Positions 3,895 through 32,000 are shown, counted from the stretch's first letter. The stretch: 32,000 bases of DNA from Terriglobia bacterium (GCA_035539075.1 DATLJB010000078.1:1-32000); one strand, 5' to 3'. A program made the numbers and translations. Notes: generated by a model not told the origin, from the sequence alone.

Positions 3895-3971
3895 GCGCCC
3901 GTAGCTCAATTGGATAGAGCATCTGACTACGAATCAGAAGGCTGGAGGTTCGAGTCCTTCCGGGCGCGCCA
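3895..3971 (+). tRNA. tRNA-Arg (anticodon ACG)
   Basis: 77 nt cloverleaf read by hand. Acceptor GCGCCCG/CGGGCGC, D stem GCTC/GAGC, anticodon stem TCTGA/TCAGA with loop CT-ACG-AA, T arm GGAGG-TTCGAGT-CCTTC, discriminator G and encoded CCA. Confidence 0.95.
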
Positions 3972-23123: not shown

Positions 23124-23918
23124 TCATATCCCGCTGAACCAGTTGAAGCCCTGCTTTTCCCAAAAGCCCTCGACATAGGTGTTGGTTACCTCGATCGCAC
23201 GGATCCATTTCGCGTTCTTGAAGCCGATCTTGACCGCGGTGCGTAAACGCAGGGGAAAGCCGAAGGGATCGGTGATCGGCTCGCCGGCATATTTCGTCGC
23301 CAGGATCGTTTGCGGATGCAGCGCCGAGGGCATGTCCAGGCATTCGGTGTAATTGTCATTGCAATGGAAGACGACATATTTGGCGGTAAGATCCGCACCG
23401 ATCTGGGTCAGAAACTGCTTCAGGTTCGGTCCCGACCATTGGCCGATATAGTCCCAGCCTTCGACGCAGATATGCTTGATGATCTCTTCCTGTTCAGGGA
23501 AGGCGTAGATCTGTTCCAGCGGCCAGGGTCGCTTGTCCTGAACCAAGCCCGCCAGCTCGAGCTTCCAGTCCTTGCGATCGATCGGTTTCACCCGCTCGAT
23601 CTCATAATAGGCATTGAACCGCGGCGGCTTCACCACTTGCGAGGCCGGGTAGGTGGGGGCGAGCCGGTTCGGGTCGAAAAGCAGGCTCTGGACCCGGTCG
23701 TTGAATCCGGAAATAGTTCGCAGGAAGGATTGCACGGCGTCCCGGTCGGAGATGTTGCAACCGGTCAGGAATGTCAGCGCGCCTAGCGACAACGTCCCCT
23801 TCAGGACGCGGCGGCGCTCGATGCTTTCGATGAGTCTGGCATTCTCGGCAAGGATACTTCGGTCGGGCACGACCTTCGGGCGGAAGAGCGATCGCACGGG
23901 CAATCGGACGGACATCAT
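23124..23918 (-). CDS. small molybdopterin-dependent oxidoreductase (sulfite-oxidase/YedY-fold), Tat signal with lipobox
   Basis: ATG at 23918 after AAGGA. RRRVLKGTLSLGALTFLTGC is a twin-arginine motif followed by L-T-G-C. Mo-domain pattern (HICVEGW..., GFPLRL..., KWIRAIEV). Confidence 0.8.
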   Translation of the reverse strand: MMSVRLPVRSLFRPKVVPDRSILAENARLIESIERRRVLKGTLSLGALTFLTGCNISDRDAVQSFLRTISGFNDRVQSLLFDPNRLAPTYPASQVVKPPRFNAYYEIERVKPIDRKDWKLELAGLVQDKRPWPLEQIYAFPEQEEIIKHICVEGWDYIGQWSGPNLKQFLTQIGADLTAKYVVFHCNDNYTECLDMPSALHPQTILATKYAGEPITDPFGFPLRLRTAVKIGFKNAKWIRAIEVTNTYVEGFWEKQGFNWFSGI

Positions 23919-23927
23919 CGATTCCTT

Positions 23928-24599
23928 TCAGCGGTGCGTGTCGGCGTTGGCGTCGGCGGCGGATGCCGAGAGGCGCGGGCCGCCGGTCAGCATGGCAAGG
24001 ATTGTCTTCGGCACCAGCAGTGCCAAGGTTACATGGACGATGGCGAACAGCACGATCGCCGTCATGCCGAGGAAATGCACCAGACGTGCGCCCTGGAAAC
24101 TGCCGAAGAGCGAAACGAGGCCCGAGAATTGCACCGGCTTCCAGATCGCAATGCCGGAAACGACCTGTAGGACGACGATAAGGATTACGCCGACATAGAG
24201 CACTTTCTGTACGGCATTGTAATGGGTGAGGTCGGCATGTTTCAGGCGGAGGGTAAGCGCGGCAACCACCTCCCGGATCACCTCCGAGACCCGGATCGGC
24301 AGCAGCATGCGGCGGAATCTGCCCGTGAAGACGCCATAGCCAAGGTAGCAGAGGCCGTTCAGCACCAGGATCCACATGACGAAGAAATGCCATTGCAGCG
24401 CGTGCTGCGCCCAGATGCCGAGGGTGATCTGGTCGGGGAAATGCAGAAAGCCGAAGATCACCTCGTCGTTGTAGATTTTCCAGCCGCTCATCACCATGAG
24501 GATCATCGAGATTGCGTTAACCCAGTGCATGATGCGCAGCGGAAGCGGGTGCATGCGCCGCGAATCCTTTCCTCCGTGCATCTCTCGATTGGGGGTCAT
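23928..24599 (-). CDS. membrane b-type cytochrome (cytochrome b561 / Ni-hydrogenase CYTB-like family)
   Basis: Four hydrophobic helices with conserved His (RIMHWVNA.., ..LQWHFF.., ..LVHFLGM..IVH). Stop is 9 nt before the Mo-enzyme ATG. In-frame ATGs at 24581 and 24554 are alternative starts. Confidence 0.78.
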   Translation of the reverse strand: MTPNREMHGGKDSRRMHPLPLRIMHWVNAISMILMVMSGWKIYNDEVIFGFLHFPDQITLGIWAQHALQWHFFVMWILVLNGLCYLGYGVFTGRFRRMLLPIRVSEVIREVVAALTLRLKHADLTHYNAVQKVLYVGVILIVVLQVVSGIAIWKPVQFSGLVSLFGSFQGARLVHFLGMTAIVLFAIVHVTLALLVPKTILAMLTGGPRLSASAADANADTHR

Positions 24600-25184: not shown

Positions 25185-26447
25185 CTATTGATCGTTGATG
25201 CTCATGGCGAAGCGATTGACGGCGCTGATTGTCGGAAAAGCGGCGGGGTGAACCGCCAATGCCCGCCCCATTTCAAGAGCGCGGCGCTCACAGGCGGCGC
25301 GCCGAGGCTCATCCGAAATGGCTTCCAGTTCGGCCGCATGAGCGAGACCGAGGATACGCCTGTGCATCTCAATTCCTGCAAAGCCGAGGGAATCCCGCCA
25401 GATATCGGTCAGCTGCTGCTGCAAGGCGATTTCACTGCCGACGGCATCATTCGACTCTTCGAAAAATTCGCGTCCCCCCAGAATGCCTGTACGCTCGCGC
25501 CGCCAGAGGTCGGAGAATTCGGCGGTAAAGACCCGCCATATGGTGCGCGCAACTTCGAGGATCCAGGCGCCGTGCTTCTGCGCGGCTTCGCCCGTCTGGT
25601 GACCCTGCTGCGCGAAATAAGCGAGCCAGAAATTTCCCAGCAGCGAACCGATATCAAAGCCCATCGGGCCATAGACGGCAAACTCGGCATCGATCACCCG
25701 GCTATCCGTTTCGGTGACCATGACCGATCCGGTATGGAGGTCGCCATGCAGGAGCGTCTCGGCGCGACTGCAGAATTTCGCCTTCAGCATGCGTGCGGCG
25801 AGCTTGAGGTCCATGTCCTGCCGTGCGGCGCGTGCGCTGCTCTCCAGGCCTGGGGTGTGGCGATTGCGGGAATGAATGATGAATGGATCGGTGAAGAAAA
25901 GATCCTCCGTGATCCCTGTCAGCTCGACGTTCCGGGCAAAGAGCGCGAGATCCGCCTTCCGATCTGCTGTATTCAGGCACAGGTCCGAGCCGCGAAACAG
26001 GGTGCGGGCGAGATAGCGCCCGAGATGCTTGCCAAGATCCGGCAACCGCAGACCGTCGATAAGCGCCTTGCGAAGGATCACATGCGGATGCAGATGCTCC
26101 ATGACGATGAGCGCCTGCTTCTCATCGAAATAGTGAAGCTTCGGTAACCGGCCTGGATCCCGCGCATCGAGGCGCATCAGGGCGTTGTACTCGAAGAAGG
26201 TGCGGTCGAGCGACATCGGCCAGCTGTCGCCGACAACGCGCGCATAAGGCAGCGCCTGCTTGACGACGAGTGAACCCCGGGGGCTTTCGACGATAAAGAT
26301 CAGGTTGAGATTGCCGTCGCCTACTTCCCTGACCCGCCAGTGGGTCGCCGGGCCGAGGAGCTCCTTCAACGCGTGAACAGGGGCAAGCCGTTGAGGCAGG
26401 CTCGCTGCCGTTAACGGTTCGTATCGGGTTTTCTCCAGCACTTTCAT
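25185..26447 (-). CDS. mtnK: 5-methylthioribose kinase
   Basis: EVGDGNLNLIF, LHGDLHTGSVMV and DAEFAVYGPMGFDIG match MtnK/APH-fold hallmarks. The ATG at 26447 (MKVLEK...) puts the GDGNLN motif at the usual distance from the N-terminus. The track ORF starts 16 codons earlier. Confidence 0.88.
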   Translation of the reverse strand: MKVLEKTRYEPLTAASLPQRLAPVHALKELLGPATHWRVREVGDGNLNLIFIVESPRGSLVVKQALPYARVVGDSWPMSLDRTFFEYNALMRLDARDPGRLPKLHYFDEKQALIVMEHLHPHVILRKALIDGLRLPDLGKHLGRYLARTLFRGSDLCLNTADRKADLALFARNVELTGITEDLFFTDPFIIHSRNRHTPGLESSARAARQDMDLKLAARMLKAKFCSRAETLLHGDLHTGSVMVTETDSRVIDAEFAVYGPMGFDIGSLLGNFWLAYFAQQGHQTGEAAQKHGAWILEVARTIWRVFTAEFSDLWRRERTGILGGREFFEESNDAVGSEIALQQQLTDIWRDSLGFAGIEMHRRILGLAHAAELEAISDEPRRAACERRALEMGRALAVHPAAFPTISAVNRFAMSINDQ

Positions 26448-26884
26448 GCGCTTCCGGCCCTGATGATATGTGGCATGACTGCGACCACGGTTCACAGCGA
26501 TCGCGTTGATCGGCAGCTGTTGCTAAGCCAATTCGGTTGCTGCCATCGCCCGGTTACGCCCGGGGACATTTATTTATGTCGTTCGGAGCCGGCCTGAGGA
26601 CGGTATGGCAGGAAGGCCGGTGGCGCAGATATGCGGCGGCAGGGGTCGGCAAGCGTTATAAGAACACCGCCAGGGCACCAAGTCCTTCTTGGCTCTCAGC
26701 CCGCCTAGGGCGGCGCCACACCCGATGCTGTTTGCATTTGCCGCCTTGAATTGCCCGGGCGGGCCGTTCGGTTCCGCGCCTTCGCTCACCGCTTGAGGGC
26801 GGCTGTCGCGCGGGGGCGAGGCAGCTCCGATTTAAGGCGGCAGCTTAAGGTCGCGGCGAAGCGCAAAACGCAGACTGTCATCAA

Positions 26885-27118: not shown

Positions 27119-28048
27119 ATGGACAAGACGAAATCGACTTTAGGAAAATGGGCTTGCGCAATCCTTGCCTTGCTGATGTTACCGGCAACAGCTTCCGCGC
27201 AGGAGGTGGTGAAGTTTCCCGCGAACCGGCCGGATATTTCCGAACCCGTTCTTTTGCGCGCCGAACTCTTCAAGCCGGAAGGTGCCGGACCCTTTCCCGC
27301 GGTGGTCTTGATGCATGGCTGCGGCGGCTGGCAGCCGGCCGTCCATTTCGGTCTCGATAATCACGCGCGCTATCTGCGCGACCACGGTTTCGTCGTGCTG
27401 AACTTAGACAGCTTCGGGCCGCGTCATACCGCCGGGGGCAAGCTTTGCAGCAGCGATCCCGCGCTCTACCACGCCCTGGATTACCGGACGCAGGATGCCT
27501 TCGATGGTCTTCATTACCTGCAATCGCTGAAATACGTCGCAGCCGATAAGATATTTCTCATGGGGCAGAGCAATGGTGGCGCCGTGGCGATCCGCGCAGC
27601 CAAGGCCTCGTCGCCCCGCTCGTATAATTCCACGACGGCATTCCGCGGCGTGGTCGCCTACTATCCCTGGTGCGGCGAATTCGGCGGATCGCAGGTTGCT
27701 CTCGCCTCGCCGCTGCTGATCTTCGCCGGCGGCCGGGACAACTGGGTCCCCGCCAGCGAATGCCAAGGCGTGCACGCGACCGGCGCCGATCTCACCTTGA
27801 AGGTCTATCCCACGGCGGTTCATTCCTTCGATCTCGATATCATTCCGCAAAGCTATGGCGGCAAACTGATCGGCGGCGATCCTCAGGCCACGGCAGATAG
27901 TCGCGAAAGGATGCTGGCCTTTTTCGAGCAGAACCTCTCGGCGCCGCGCAAGCCGGTGCCGACGCAGATCGCGCAGACTTCGCTCAGCACGGAGGCAAGC
28001 AATACGCCGCTCGCCAACATGCCCGTGAGCAATGGGAATCGGAAATAG
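27119..28048 (+). CDS. secreted dienelactone-hydrolase-family alpha/beta hydrolase
   Basis: Signal peptide ...LPATASA/QEV. PAVVLMHGCGG, nucleophile elbow GQSNGG, a late Asp (GGRDNWV) and His (AVHSF), as in dienelactone-hydrolase-like enzymes. Confidence 0.78.
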   Translation: MDKTKSTLGKWACAILALLMLPATASAQEVVKFPANRPDISEPVLLRAELFKPEGAGPFPAVVLMHGCGGWQPAVHFGLDNHARYLRDHGFVVLNLDSFGPRHTAGGKLCSSDPALYHALDYRTQDAFDGLHYLQSLKYVAADKIFLMGQSNGGAVAIRAAKASSPRSYNSTTAFRGVVAYYPWCGEFGGSQVALASPLLIFAGGRDNWVPASECQGVHATGADLTLKVYPTAVHSFDLDIIPQSYGGKLIGGDPQATADSRERMLAFFEQNLSAPRKPVPTQIAQTSLSTEASNTPLANMPVSNGNRK

Positions 28049-28087: not shown

Positions 28088-30283
28088 TCATTTCGGATCG
28101 TGCTCGAATGGTAGTCCGGGCTCGAAGGATAACTGCGTATAAGTCAGCGTGCCGTGATCGAAAACCGCCTCCAGCCGGATCGGGCCCCTGAGACGCTCGA
28201 AGACGCAGATCAGTTTCGACGGGAGCCAGCTTGAGGAGGTCTCGAGATGAGTTTCGATCGTGAGCGTCTCCTTCTCGCCATTGGGGGCGCTTACGCATTG
28301 GCAGCGCATATAGGCGAAGGGTTCCTTGAGATAAGGTGAGAGCGAGAGGCCGAGCCACCGCGCCACAGGATGAGGGACAATCGGTGCGGGCTCTGCCCAT
28401 GTCATCCCCGGTGTCGCCGCGTAAGGGATCGAAGGAATGACCAGGGCTAATAAAGTCAGCAGCGGCGTAGCCGCGCCCTTCACTTCGACGATCCGCCATG
28501 CGTCGGCACCAAGGCTGGCGGTCAATGCGCCGGTGCCGGCGCGATAGATATGCTGCCCGGCCTCATCGAGCAGAACGGTGGTCCGCTGTGTTGAAGTGGA
28601 TTTCGTGCGCCAATGCTTCCGCGGTATTCTGCCGGTGATTTCGGCGGTCCATATAACTGTGCCCGGGGACAGGCTGCCCAAGAGCGCCCGGATGCGTGGA
28701 TCAATCCGGGCTGGCGCGATGATTGTGCCCTGTTCCGGCAACGATGCCGAGTTCCACCGGGACAATGGCCGTTCAGGATCGTTGGAGGACAGGTAGTTCG
28801 CCAGACGGAAAGGAATGGTCGGCGAGCCCAACTGCGACGTCCCTTGCACCTGCACATGCAGATGCGGCACCGGCGAGCGGCCTGAATTGCCGACCTTGCC
28901 GATATAGGTCCCGATATCGACACGCATGCCGGAGGGAACGGCGATCGAATGCTGCTGCAAATGCGCCAGCATGGCCCACCCACCTTGTTCGAGCCGGATG
29001 GTGACGTAGTTGCCCCAGTTGTTTGCATAGTTGCAGATGCCGAGTGGATTGTCGGGCACCGAGGTCTCCAGGTGCTCGATGCGCCCCGCCGCGGGAGCGG
29101 TCACGGCTGCGCCCCATATCGACGTGCCTTCCACCGTCCCGTCGCTCGCGCCGCCGGGCAGAAACTGCAGATCCAGGGCATGGCGCCAAGGACCGACATG
29201 GCTGAGCTGCCCGTCATCACCCTGGGTGATTTGCACCGGGCCCTGCACCGGAACGGTGAGAAATGGCTCCCCGTGACCAGCGCGGCGGGCCCAATAGGCG
29301 TCGCTCCACCAGACTTCCTCGGGCGGCAGGTTGGTGACTCTGTTACGGCGAAAGAGCTTCTGCTCGCTTGCCTGCTGCAGCGCGTAGATGCCGATCCAGA
29401 CGATGAGTATCGACGATACCGGCAGATATCCGTAAGCCGCGTATGGAAAGAGATGCTGGAGCGCCACGGCGATGACCGCGGCACCGCAGCCGCCGATCGC
29501 CGCGATCACCAGGCTGGCCCGCCCGGGCAGCAGAAAGGCGGCGCCCAGACCCATGCCGGCAAGGAAGAAATTGTAGGCTGTCGGCATCCAGTAATAGACG
29601 ACGCCGAGCTTCACGAGGCCAATCGCGGTGGCGACACCGGCGATCCATCCGATGATACCGGCGAGCAAGGCCGATCTTGACCACAGCATGATTGCAAATA
29701 CGAGGATGACGCCGACCTCGGGGGTCGGCTTGAAAAGCAGCGCTCCCAAGCTGCTGAAGAAATGCCTCACCCAGCCCAGCATGTCTGTCGGGACGGGACC
29801 CCATGTCATCACCGCCGATGCTTGATATGTCCAATCCGGAAAAATCGCGAAAAGCATGGCGGCAATGATGCAATAGCCGAAGGTCATGGTGGGCAAGGCT
29901 CTCGGCGTCAGGGCCTTTATAATGGCGGCGGTCACCATCGCCGCCATCACCGCACAGGTCGCGGCAATGGCGATCTGCACTTCCACCGGCACGAAGGAAT
30001 GGGTGAGCCAGGCCGCGGCGATTGCCGACAGCACCGCATTCGCCTTGATGCTGCCATCGACCGGCGAGGAATCAGTGATCTGGCAGCTCCTGGCGATCAT
30101 TTCGGCCAGGGCGATGCCGAGCAGGGCGAAGGCGGCGTGATTCAGATCCTGGAAAACTGCCAGCCAGAGAATGGTGCCGATCCAGGGATCGGCGATCAGG
30201 AAGGCGCCGCCCAACGCCGGTCCGAGAATTGAAACCAGCGGCGTTGGGAACTTCTGCGCGGCTTTGACCGATTGCGACCACAT
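28088..30283 (-). CDS. fusion protein: urea-transporter-like polytopic membrane domain + M23 metallopeptidase domain + ~230-aa C-terminal domain of unknown function
   Basis: ATG at 30283; the track start at 30394 is TTG and would overlap the upstream gene by 74 nt. The N-terminal ~350 aa are hydrophobic with a UT-like G..F....G.L.L.A......A..ALLG pattern. M23 motifs are intact: WRHALD (H-x3-D, codons at 29171-29182) and GNSGRSPVPHLHVQV (HLH at 28855-28863). Confidence 0.75.
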   Translation of the reverse strand: MWSQSVKAAQKFPTPLVSILGPALGGAFLIADPWIGTILWLAVFQDLNHAAFALLGIALAEMIARSCQITDSSPVDGSIKANAVLSAIAAAWLTHSFVPVEVQIAIAATCAVMAAMVTAAIIKALTPRALPTMTFGYCIIAAMLFAIFPDWTYQASAVMTWGPVPTDMLGWVRHFFSSLGALLFKPTPEVGVILVFAIMLWSRSALLAGIIGWIAGVATAIGLVKLGVVYYWMPTAYNFFLAGMGLGAAFLLPGRASLVIAAIGGCGAAVIAVALQHLFPYAAYGYLPVSSILIVWIGIYALQQASEQKLFRRNRVTNLPPEEVWWSDAYWARRAGHGEPFLTVPVQGPVQITQGDDGQLSHVGPWRHALDLQFLPGGASDGTVEGTSIWGAAVTAPAAGRIEHLETSVPDNPLGICNYANNWGNYVTIRLEQGGWAMLAHLQQHSIAVPSGMRVDIGTYIGKVGNSGRSPVPHLHVQVQGTSQLGSPTIPFRLANYLSSNDPERPLSRWNSASLPEQGTIIAPARIDPRIRALLGSLSPGTVIWTAEITGRIPRKHWRTKSTSTQRTTVLLDEAGQHIYRAGTGALTASLGADAWRIVEVKGAATPLLTLLALVIPSIPYAATPGMTWAEPAPIVPHPVARWLGLSLSPYLKEPFAYMRCQCVSAPNGEKETLTIETHLETSSSWLPSKLICVFERLRGPIRLEAVFDHGTLTYTQLSFEPGLPFEHDPK

Positions 30284-30320
30284 TTCGAAGCGCGGACCTT
30301 CCTGGTTATCCTGGCCCCGC

Positions 30321-31751
30321 CTATTTCGGGGCGAGGTGGGCGGGAATCCGTTCCAGATGTTCGATATCTTCCAGCCTTTCCCGCTTGCGGACAATCTCCG
30401 GCTTGCCTTCGGGATCGATCAAAACCACGGCCGGCCGGTAGGAGATGAACTGCATCGATTGGGAAAGGTTGTAGGCCCCCACCGGATGCATGGTCACGGC
30501 ATCGCCCACCTGAAGCGGCGGCAGATCTACATTGTCGCGGATGACGTCGATGGCCATGCATAGCGGGCCATAGATCCGTGACGGTGCGGGCGGCGCGTCG
30601 GCCGACGCCGTCGGCCGCATCGATAGCTGATACCAGGCCGCCGTGAAAAGCAGGTTGATGCCGGCATCGAGGACGTAGCCGATCTTCGGGTCCTCTCCGA
30701 GCACCAACTGCTCCTTGTAGTCCCGCGCGGACAGATCCGAATCGGTCGTCGCCGGCCGGTTCATTCCCTTGACCGCGACGACCGTGCTCAGCAGATAGCC
30801 GGCCTCGTCGATCAGATGCCGGCCGGTTTCCAGGCGCAGCAGCGGCCGCTTCTTTTCCGGCAGGGCGTTCAGGACGTTGGAGATAGCGTCGGCATAGGCT
30901 TCGATGGGCGGAATCACGGCTTCTGCCGGACCGACCATGCCATGCAGCAAGCTAAGGGACGGGAAGCCGCCGCCGAGATTGATGCATTCGACCAGGTGGT
31001 GATGCGCGTCGTGGATGCGCTCACGCAGCGCGACAAGCTTTTGCGCGGCAACACCATAGGCGGATGGCGCCAGGATATAGGTGCCGATATGCGTGTGCAG
31101 CGTATGAAGCCGGAGGTTCGGGTTCTTGACCACACGCACCGCCGCGCGCTCCGCTTCGCCATTTGCCAAGGCAAAGCCGAATTTTGACCAGACCGGCCTT
31201 ATCCCCGCATCGAGCCAGATTCGGAGCCCGACATCGACCGGCTTGTCCGCGTCCTTCACCAGCTCCTCGACGATATTGAGCTCATCCCAGTTATCGATCT
31301 GGACAAGCGCACCTTCCTTGATGGCGCGCGCCAGTATCTCACGGGGCTTGTATGGGCCGTTGAACACGATGTCCTTGCCGGCAAAGCCCAGCTTGCGCGC
31401 TTTCTCGTATTCGAAATCGGAAACGACCTCGGCGATCCAGCCTTCCTGCCGCAAGACCTGGCAGACCACATCGAGATAATTGGTCTTGAAGGACCAGGCG
31501 AAGCTGGTTTTCGGATAACGGCTTTTGAAGGCGCCACGTTCTCGCCTCGCCTTGTCGCGCAGCGTCCGCTCCGAAAAGACGAAGAGCGGCGAGCCGAATT
31601 CGGCGAGAAGCGCCGACACGGGCACGCCGTCGATCTGGGAGATCGTCGGGGCGTGCAAGCCGCGCGCGTAGAAGTTGCGGTCGGAGGCTGCTTGCGGGCT
31701 CGATCGGCCCAGTTCGCCGCTGATGAGGGGCTGGGTATAGGTCTGTGTCAT
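30321..31751 (-). CDS. fold-type III PLP-dependent decarboxylase (Orn/DAP/Arg decarboxylase family)
   Basis: 476 aa. Pattern of the family: ..SPLFVFSE..., FAWSFKTNY (PLP-Lys region), HTHIGT, INLGGGF, ETGRHL..., YGPLCM. Its ATG overlaps the upstream gene's stop (ATGA at 31748-31751). Confidence 0.82.
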   Translation of the reverse strand: MTQTYTQPLISGELGRSSPQAASDRNFYARGLHAPTISQIDGVPVSALLAEFGSPLFVFSERTLRDKARRERGAFKSRYPKTSFAWSFKTNYLDVVCQVLRQEGWIAEVVSDFEYEKARKLGFAGKDIVFNGPYKPREILARAIKEGALVQIDNWDELNIVEELVKDADKPVDVGLRIWLDAGIRPVWSKFGFALANGEAERAAVRVVKNPNLRLHTLHTHIGTYILAPSAYGVAAQKLVALRERIHDAHHHLVECINLGGGFPSLSLLHGMVGPAEAVIPPIEAYADAISNVLNALPEKKRPLLRLETGRHLIDEAGYLLSTVVAVKGMNRPATTDSDLSARDYKEQLVLGEDPKIGYVLDAGINLLFTAAWYQLSMRPTASADAPPAPSRIYGPLCMAIDVIRDNVDLPPLQVGDAVTMHPVGAYNLSQSMQFISYRPAVVLIDPEGKPEIVRKRERLEDIEHLERIPAHLAPK

Positions 31752-32000
31752 GTCGCGAGTTCGCTTTCTAGAGGTGCGCTGTCGGCGGAGCGGCCCAGGT
31801 CTTCAATGCGCTGACCGGTGGTGACGAAACGGGCGACATCGCCGATATCGGCCACCAGATCGATGCTGTGCCGGATGAACATCTGCCCCGGCGTGCTATG
31901 CCGCAGGGGCTCTGGCTTGTGATGGAGCAAGCCCTCCAGCAGGCGCACCGGCAGGTTGCAATCGATCTGCGAGGGAAAGTCGACCCATGCGGGGAAGCGT
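31748..32000 (-). CDS. C-terminal 83 codons of an ATP-grasp-like ligase (5' part outside window)
   Basis: The frame is open to the window edge: RFPAWVDFPSQIDCNLPVRLLEGLL.... This resembles the (N)PR(F/L)...G.N.P..L...L.G tail of ATP-grasp enzymes. Only a fragment is visible. Confidence 0.45.
   Translation of the reverse strand, partial: RFPAWVDFPSQIDCNLPVRLLEGLLHHKPEPLRHSTPGQMFIRHSIDLVADIGDVARFVTTGQRIEDLGRSADSAPLESELAT

Follow-up and report, generated by a model that had tools for sequence, protein, structure and literature searches.

A conserved proteobacterial operon linking an ATP-grasp ligase and a FigC-like decarboxylase to a UT-fold membrane protein with an altered M23-like domain

What might an amide-forming ligase, an amino acid decarboxylase and a membrane protein bearing a cell-wall peptidase fold do together in one operon? 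This question is raised by a stretch of 32,000 nucleotides from a Terriglobia bacterium (GCA_035539075.1 DATLJB010000078.1:1-32000; hereafter the window), in which three co-directional genes occupy the minus strand from 28088 to 32000: the 3' end of an ATP-grasp ligase gene, the gene of a pyridoxal phosphate (PLP)-dependent decarboxylase, and the gene of a fusion protein composed of a urea transporter (UT) fold, an M23-like domain and, at its C-terminus, a domain of beta structure (Table 1). A preliminary description, made from the sequence alone, had reported this packing together with the ATGA stop/start overlap that joins the ligase fragment to the decarboxylase gene, the gap of 37 nt between decarboxylase and fusion genes and the 731-residue length of the fusion, and all of these points were borne out by reading the open reading frames (ORFs). 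Its gene and domain calls were correct, with the UT, Peptidase_M23 and both decarboxylase domains found in Pfam searches. In this study, we found that the three genes form the 3' portion of a conserved operon, in which every domain comes from a known family; the architecture, the altered sites and the operon itself are uncharacterised.

Conservation of the operon

A locus scan with one genome per species gave 58 loci spanning Alpha-, Beta- and Gammaproteobacteria (more than 50 species), in genera that include Ferrovibrio, Acidocella, Reyranella, Pseudolabrys, Ramlibacter, Rhodoferax, Polaromonas, Hydrogenophaga, Methylotenera, Thiomicrorhabdus, Stutzerimonas, Marimonas and others. The decarboxylase gene was located directly upstream of the fusion gene in 55 of the 58 loci, and the ATP-grasp gene lay upstream of the decarboxylase gene in 52. 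The first gene of the operon encodes a PqqD family protein of ~100 aa, and the order PqqD-like, ATP-grasp, decarboxylase, fusion was kept in 52-55 of 58 loci, with the genes usually overlapping or adjacent. The PqqD-like gene was present in a divergent Rhodobacterales locus as well, although the first search had missed the gene there. The trio named in the preliminary description is thus co-conserved across genera in three proteobacterial classes, and it forms part of a larger unit, with the PqqD-like gene and several envelope genes, that was not visible from the window. The PqqD-like gene lies outside the window, and the window's own fusion protein was not on record in the public assemblies that were searched to extend the stretch past base 32000.

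Homologues of the fusion were detectable in 375 cases, of which the best 120 were full length, mostly 720-790 aa, with both Pfam domains in each; at source they are annotated as 'urea transporter' or as MepM/NlpD. Full-text searching of the literature on these domain combinations yielded nothing relevant, in line with the earlier statement that no characterised pathway has such a composition. The fusion ORF of the window remains open further 5' to a TTG at 30394 (30284-30394, minus strand), a start that would give an overlap with the decarboxylase gene at its 3' end, and N-termini differ among the homologues; the ATG at 30283 is the likelier start.

Two orphan copies of the fusion gene were found without the biosynthetic trio, at L007 2994-4997 (-) and L033 3843-5276 (-). 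Their neighbours are unrelated (eCIS core, patatin-like phospholipase, GGDEF-EAL and others), with an eCIS-core-domain protein beside one copy and a patatin beside the other, and the L007 copy has retained a dienelactone hydrolase (DLH) neighbour. In Stutzerimonas sp. S1, an rsmX small RNA is located at L005 4320-4431 (-), ~3 kb upstream of the operon, a proximity that is probably coincidental.

The fusion protein

The N-terminal part of the fusion had been described as ten to twelve hydrophobic segments with a urea-transporter-like pattern, and this was confirmed at the level of fold. Pfam UT (PF03253) matched residues 26-301 (6.9e-19, 68.6 bits against a cut-off of 25) over profile positions 10-290 of 292, and the AlphaFold (AF2) model of the full-length protein (pLDDT 86.5, pTM 0.84) placed twelve helices in residues 15-304, namely 10 transmembrane helices and 2 half-helices, in line with the UT fold of two inverted repeats, each made up of a half-helix and five transmembrane helices. 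In Foldseek comparisons with dvUT, UT-B and UT-A, the target-normalised TM score was 0.70-0.78. Recent structures have defined the urea recognition motif of this family as Q(Pa)-V-Y(3a)-T(5a) together with Q(Pb)-V/I-F/Y(3b)-T(5b) (PMC11589576). In 30 aligned members of the fusion family, Q(Pa), Y(3a), T(5a), Q(Pb) and T(5b) were replaced by S/N/G, A, V/L, A/S/M and A/S, respectively, and only the aromatic position 3b (Y/H) was kept. The UT-like fold in the preliminary description therefore stands, but the residues for urea recognition are absent; because these residues are replaced, the sequences give no reason to name the protein a urea channel.

In UT-B, the N- and C-termini are both intracellular (PMC5700210). 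When the sides of the loops were assigned from the AF2 helix boundaries and this N-in/C-in topology, the cytoplasmic loops and flanks carried 8.8 Lys+Arg per sequence, versus 1.5 on the periplasmic side. No transmembrane helix followed residue 304 in the AF2 model. A hydrophobic stretch at residues 601-625 is not a membrane span, as in the AF2 models it forms a short helix plus a strand within the C-terminal beta domain. From the UT topology and the charge bias, a cytoplasmic location is predicted for the M23-like and C-terminal domains, which supports the placement of the M23 domain suggested earlier.

The M23-like domain was recognised by Pfam Peptidase_M23 at residues 391-482 (1.6e-11, 44.7 bits against a cut-off of 28.7) and by profile-profile alignment (hhalign) with E. 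coli MepM at 95% probability. Foldseek matched it to M23 structures, the nearest of which include the degenerate LytM factors DipM and EnvC. The preliminary description had held its metal and catalytic motifs to be intact, and this was only partly so. The H-x-H motif is present as HLH, one base away from the coordinates first given for it (28855-28863), and the catalytic His is present too; the first zinc motif is not. The H-x3-D formerly placed at 29171-29182 could not be retained, as these 12 nt are four codons that read HALD, and the position of the zinc-binding His is occupied by Arg367, which hhalign set opposite the His of MepM HRGVD, with D371 opposite the Asp. The neighbouring H368 would give an H-x2-D spacing, but 7 of 30 members have Tyr or Gln in its place. 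Among 56 orthologues the canonical zinc-His position was never occupied by His: Arg was found there in 48 (two of them, L002 and L036, read by eye from printed motifs), Ser in 5, Cys in 3 and Pro in 1. Loci with Ser or Cys at this position (YSHALD, FCHALD etc.; L022, L025, L026, L030, L037, L042 and L052) come from some Burkholderiales and a few other bacteria, and a basic residue is therefore not essential there.

Other residues of the site were conserved, with D371, H474 and H476 invariant (30/30) and H441 present in 29/30. The conservation of these four residues speaks against decay and in favour of a site that works, and from the alignments we conclude that the M23-like site is under selection but re-tooled.

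Beyond residue ~490, Pfam gave no match up to the C-terminus at residue 731, in agreement with the earlier remark that the last ~230 residues match no family. Modelled alone by AF2, residues 486-731 formed an almost all-beta domain with good confidence (pLDDT 87.7, pTM 0.85). The best solved Foldseek matches were LolA proteins (E 3e-5), with a TM score of only 0.30-0.42. A profile search of 1.84 billion representative proteins returned 104 matches, and because all of them were members of the fusion family or fragments of them, the domain is specific to the fusion architecture. Stand-alone C-terminal domains were sought among these matches and rejected: the shorter ones were fragments, and the seemingly complete P0193 has a frame that is open to the contig end. 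P0215 (357 aa) has an N-terminus like that of the operon's ATP-grasp protein and runs from there straight into the second half of the M23 domain, followed by the C-terminal domain, which could reflect a deletion, a frameshift or an assembly chimera.

Ligase, decarboxylase and envelope neighbours

The 83-aa ligase fragment of the window alone matched no family in Pfam or NCBIfam, but it shared 66% identity with the C-terminal end of a full-length orthologue of 360 aa from Ferrovibrio. This orthologue matched the CPS-like ATP-grasp models PRK12767 of NCBIfam (1.5e-20) and PDB 2PN1 (1.5e-15) but stayed below the curated cut-offs, and through it the earlier reading of a partial ATP-grasp-like ORF was supported. 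The PqqD-like orthologue of Ferrovibrio matched Pfam PqqD (4.4e-07, 30.6 bits against a cut-off of 23.4) and the lasso PqqD model (1.4e-05).

The decarboxylase contained Orn_Arg_deC_N (1.8e-25) and Orn_DAP_Arg_deC (2.8e-12), both above the Pfam cut-offs, as expected of the fold-type III PLP decarboxylase that had been proposed. The best solved relative was the N-citrylornithine decarboxylase FigC/FslC (7KH2, 2.7e-50), with diaminopimelate (DAP) decarboxylases at ~1e-26, and the catalytic set aligned to FigC K63 (PLP Lys), H198 (stacking His), G237-239, E287 and C354 was conserved. Ornithine, arginine and DAP decarboxylases have an acidic residue beside the catalytic Cys that binds the free side-chain amine, and this residue is Met in FigC (PMC7857480). 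The Cys loop reads GPLCMAID in the window enzyme, GPSCMQHD in FigC and LCESSD in DAP decarboxylase, so that C-M is common to the window enzyme and FigC (C354-M355). In contrast, His357, which together with R387 is a citrate-binding residue of FigC, aligned with Ile, and the score against the NCBIfam FslC model was 195.8, below the cut-off of 500; by these two criteria the enzyme is best regarded as a relative of FigC and not an equivalog. Because the loop is as in FigC, the substrate is probably an amino acid whose side chain has already been conjugated, and because His357 is replaced by Ile, the conjugate is probably not citrate. The idea of a small amino-acid-derived amide in the preliminary description fits this picture, as FigC/FslC acts on an amide conjugate.

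Clustering of all ORFs of the loci revealed three further families, which vary in position and orientation among loci: an orphan family-5 solute-binding protein in 48 loci, a DLH-family hydrolase with a signal peptide in 46, and, in at least 17, a BcsS-like protein that has a signal peptide and ends in Phe, as outer-membrane barrels typically do. Among the clustered ORFs, neither an ABC permease nor an ATPase was conserved. The N-terminus of the window DLH hydrolase reads as a signal peptide, and the protein shares 73% identity with its counterpart in L004, the locus closest to the window; the binding-protein gene probably lies beyond base 32000, in keeping with its place in L004. The binding protein has GsiB, NikA, AgaA and peptide binders as its nearest relatives and has a close homologue with a deposited structure (8VDX, E 1e-103), for which a literature search found no describing paper. 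In L004 (5101-6714, -), the N-terminus of the binding protein ends in ...PLALGAC and looks like a lipoprotein signal.

Table 1. Positions of the operon genes, the domains and motifs of the fusion, and other features of the window.
Feature	Position	Strand	Remarks
Fusion gene	28088-30283	-	ORF from ATG, 731 aa; UT-fold channel, M23-like domain and family-specific beta domain
PLP decarboxylase gene	30321-31751	-	476 aa; fold-type III (alanine-racemase-fold), FigC/FslC-like subfamily
ATP-grasp ligase gene, 3' end	31748-32000	-	83 codons plus stop; gene cut by window edge
UT-fold membrane domain of fusion	29372-30241	-	residues 15-304
M23/LytM-fold domain of fusion	28829-29248	-	residues ~346-485
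RHALD, altered counterpart of M23 H-x3-D zinc motif	29171-29185	-	from translation; aligned to MepM HRGVD
HLH, M23 H-x-H motif	28856-28864	-	from translation
C-terminal all-beta domain of fusion	28091-28828	-	residues 486-731; no Pfam family
Secreted DLH-family alpha/beta hydrolase gene	27119-28048	+	Pfam DLH 2.3e-15; convergent with fusion gene
APH-family phosphotransferase gene	25185-26495	-	436 aa; by eye like methylthioribose kinase; not conserved beside the operon in other genomes
Cytochrome b561 gene	23928-24599	-	adjoins the gene in the next row
Molybdopterin-oxidoreductase-domain gene	23124-23918	-	with the preceding gene (23124-24599), a pair resembling MsrP/MsrQ (YedY/YedZ)
ORF of 678 aa	20975-23011	-	no Pfam match at E <= 0.001
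tRNA gene	3895-3968	+	Rfam, 71.5 bits

Possible function and comparison with known systems

Starting from the domain identities, the synteny, the predicted topology and the altered motifs, we infer a type of substrate, a product, a possible hydrolytic activity of the M23-like domain and a direction of transport, and propose the following model. The cytoplasmic ATP-grasp enzyme, working with the PqqD-like protein as a peptide-binding partner, would form an amide bond between a carboxylate and a diamino acid; since the partner is PqqD-like, the amide donor might be a peptide. The decarboxylase would strip the alpha-carboxylate from the conjugate to leave an N-acyl-diamine-type product, following the logic of rhizoferrin FigA/FigC. 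The fusion, probably a trimer like other UT channels and with a pore that has no urea-recognition residues, would serve as a dedicated membrane conduit, with the M23-like and beta domains at its cytoplasmic mouth binding or cleaving the compound. In the envelope, the compound would be handled by the periplasmic family-5 binding protein (a lipoprotein in some loci), the secreted DLH hydrolase and the BcsS-like barrel. That the ligase and decarboxylase make an amide of the N-acyl-diamine type, with the fusion as its conduit and processing site, is a tentative proposal that we regard as quite possible, though short of probable. Export is slightly favoured over uptake, because the cytoplasmic enzymes are biosynthetic in character. 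A more specific version is speculative and, in our estimation, unlikely to hold in full: a 'peptidase-containing channel', in which a UT-fold channel would have been converted from urea conduction to the conduit of a biosynthetic operon, a re-tooled cytoplasmic M23 domain and a family-specific binding domain would serve to load or to release the amide that is formed on a substrate bound by PqqD, and the binding protein, hydrolase and barrel would complete the route.

Several points weigh against the proposed amide pathway. The first zinc ligand of the M23-like domain is missing, and for this reason the domain may do no more than bind. Known UT proteins have a narrow pore, so that this one may admit nothing larger than urea, and for the orphan binding protein and outer-membrane barrel, a role in uptake is at least as fitting as one in export. 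The resemblance of the beta domain to LolA is a weak match and serves as a lead only. A precursor-peptide search, in which 2918 short ORFs within 1.5 kb of the conserved genes of 52 loci were clustered, found none that was conserved; it yielded only shadow ORFs and low-complexity matches, with the short ORFs upstream of the PqqD gene listed as well. With no conserved precursor ORF in the loci or close to them, the part given to the PqqD-like protein in the model is tentative. Physiological clues were likewise lacking, as no sigma-54, Fur or Zur site was found upstream of the operon and no riboswitch in the window and five loci.

The same components can be arranged for uptake and salvage. An ester or peptide-like compound from outside would enter through the BcsS-like barrel, be trimmed by the DLH hydrolase, captured by the binding protein and imported by the UT-fold channel; the M23-like domain would cleave it at the cytoplasmic mouth, and ATP-dependent ligation and decarboxylation would trap it in metabolism. 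Family-5 binding proteins are import or sensing components, with peptide binders, GsiB, NikA and AgaA as the closest relatives here, the hydrolase and barrel bear signal peptides, and a passive channel coupled to irreversible cytoplasmic chemistry could drive net import; moreover, at L007 the DLH neighbour has stayed with a fusion gene that lacks the biosynthetic trio. However, ATP-grasp ligases, PqqD-like chaperones and FigC-like decarboxylases typically belong to biosynthetic and not to catabolic pathways, the four genes for the cytoplasmic enzymes and the channel form a tight operon with the envelope genes loosely placed around it, and we know of no binding-protein-dependent channel in the UT family. 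We consider uptake a possibility, albeit a rather unlikely one. A ribosomal-peptide pathway is less probable still. In such a pathway the PqqD-like protein would bind a ribosomal peptide encoded elsewhere, which the ATP-grasp enzyme would extend or modify, the decarboxylase act upon and the M23-like domain clip at the membrane, and a small product would leave through the channel, in parallel to the peptidase-containing ABC exporters. The matches to Pfam PqqD and the lasso PqqD model point in this direction, as that family is the recognition element of ribosomal-peptide pathways; M23 enzymes cleave peptide bonds, and a peptidase-like domain is fused here to the cytoplasmic side of a membrane conduit. 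Against this, no small ORF was conserved in the 52 loci when searched out to 1.5 kb from the conserved genes, the decarboxylase family works on alpha-amino-acid heads that are free and not on the termini of peptides, a peptide cannot pass a UT pore, and the M23 zinc site is altered.

The two functions that the annotations at source suggest fared worse. A regulated urea or small-amide channel, in which urea passes through the UT domain and is gated by the cytoplasmic domains according to a metabolite from the neighbouring enzymes, would account for the clear UT fold and for the name 'urea transporter', but the Q-T-T-Q hydrogen-bond ladder and Y(3a) (PMC11589576) are replaced in all 30 aligned members, and no urease, urea carboxylase or agmatinase was conserved nearby, which makes this explanation doubtful. 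An ordinary cell-wall function would have the fusion act as a membrane-anchored periplasmic M23 endopeptidase or LytM-type activator beside incidental neighbours. M23 and LolA-like folds are typically periplasmic, the nearest M23 structures include the degenerate DipM and EnvC, and homologues are annotated as MepM/NlpD. Nevertheless, the UT fold is complete, with both termini expected inside (PMC5700210), the Lys+Arg bias is 8.8 versus 1.5, the fusion has neither a signal peptide nor an extra transmembrane helix, and synteny with cytoplasmic enzymes extends over more than 50 species; the NCBIfam peptidoglycan hydrolase models also scored far below their cut-offs. An ordinary periplasmic M23 hydrolase was therefore rejected on topology and synteny, and an ordinary cell-wall function seems to us very improbable.

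If the proposed amide pathway is true, it would provide a UT channel that conducts something other than urea and an M23 domain that works in the cytoplasm with a changed metal site, and it would point to an amide or polyamine-like metabolite of common soil and water bacteria. A binding protein paired with a channel, and not with an ABC transporter, would be unusual as well. The bacteria with the operon include many strains of Stutzerimonas stutzeri, which are genetically tractable.

The fusion can be compared with known proteins domain by domain. It resembles the UT family (dvUT, UT-B and UT-A) in fold, in its two-repeat architecture, in having paired Asn motifs and in the N-in/C-in topology expected for it, but it differs in its missing urea-recognition residues, its 430-residue cytoplasmic extension and a genomic context unrelated to urea. 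With the M23/LytM peptidases and factors (MepM, LytM and ShyA; DipM, EnvC and SpoIIQ) it shares the fold, the Asp, the catalytic His and H-x-H. Unlike those proteins, it has Arg, Ser or Cys in place of the first zinc His and an insertion of ~15 residues behind the Asp, and the domain is predicted to be cytoplasmic and is fused to a channel. Decayed LytM factors lose most of the Asp and His residues that the fusion keeps, and the site of the fusion differs from the canonical M23 site as well.

At the level of the pathway, the closest parallel to the two enzymes is rhizoferrin FigA/FigC (FslA/FslC) of Francisella, together with SbnH of staphyloferrin B, where an amide-forming ligase is likewise paired with an alanine-racemase-fold decarboxylase that acts on the conjugate; a similar pairing is that of the vibrioferrin enzymes PvsA (ATP-grasp) and PvsE (decarboxylase). 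The window operon differs from FigA/FigC in having an ATP-grasp enzyme with a PqqD-like partner in place of a nonribosomal-peptide-synthetase-independent siderophore synthetase, and a UT-fold fusion instead of a major facilitator superfamily exporter, and no Fur box was found. For the fusion itself, the peptidase-containing ABC transporters, in which a C39 domain is fused to the exporter, offer a precedent for a cytoplasmic peptidase-type domain joined to the membrane conduit of a biosynthetic operon. The fusion would be the passive-channel counterpart of these exporters, with other peptidase and transporter families, and no precursor peptide was found for it. A last parallel is glutathionylspermidine synthetase/amidase, a cytoplasmic enzyme that combines an ATP-grasp amide ligase with a CHAP domain of a cell-wall-hydrolase family and acts on a small amide. 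Although the proteins and domain families are different and glutathionylspermidine synthetase/amidase has no membrane component, both systems have an ATP-grasp ligase working with a domain of a cell-wall-hydrolase family, CHAP there and M23 in the window operon, on what is known or predicted to be the cytoplasmic side.

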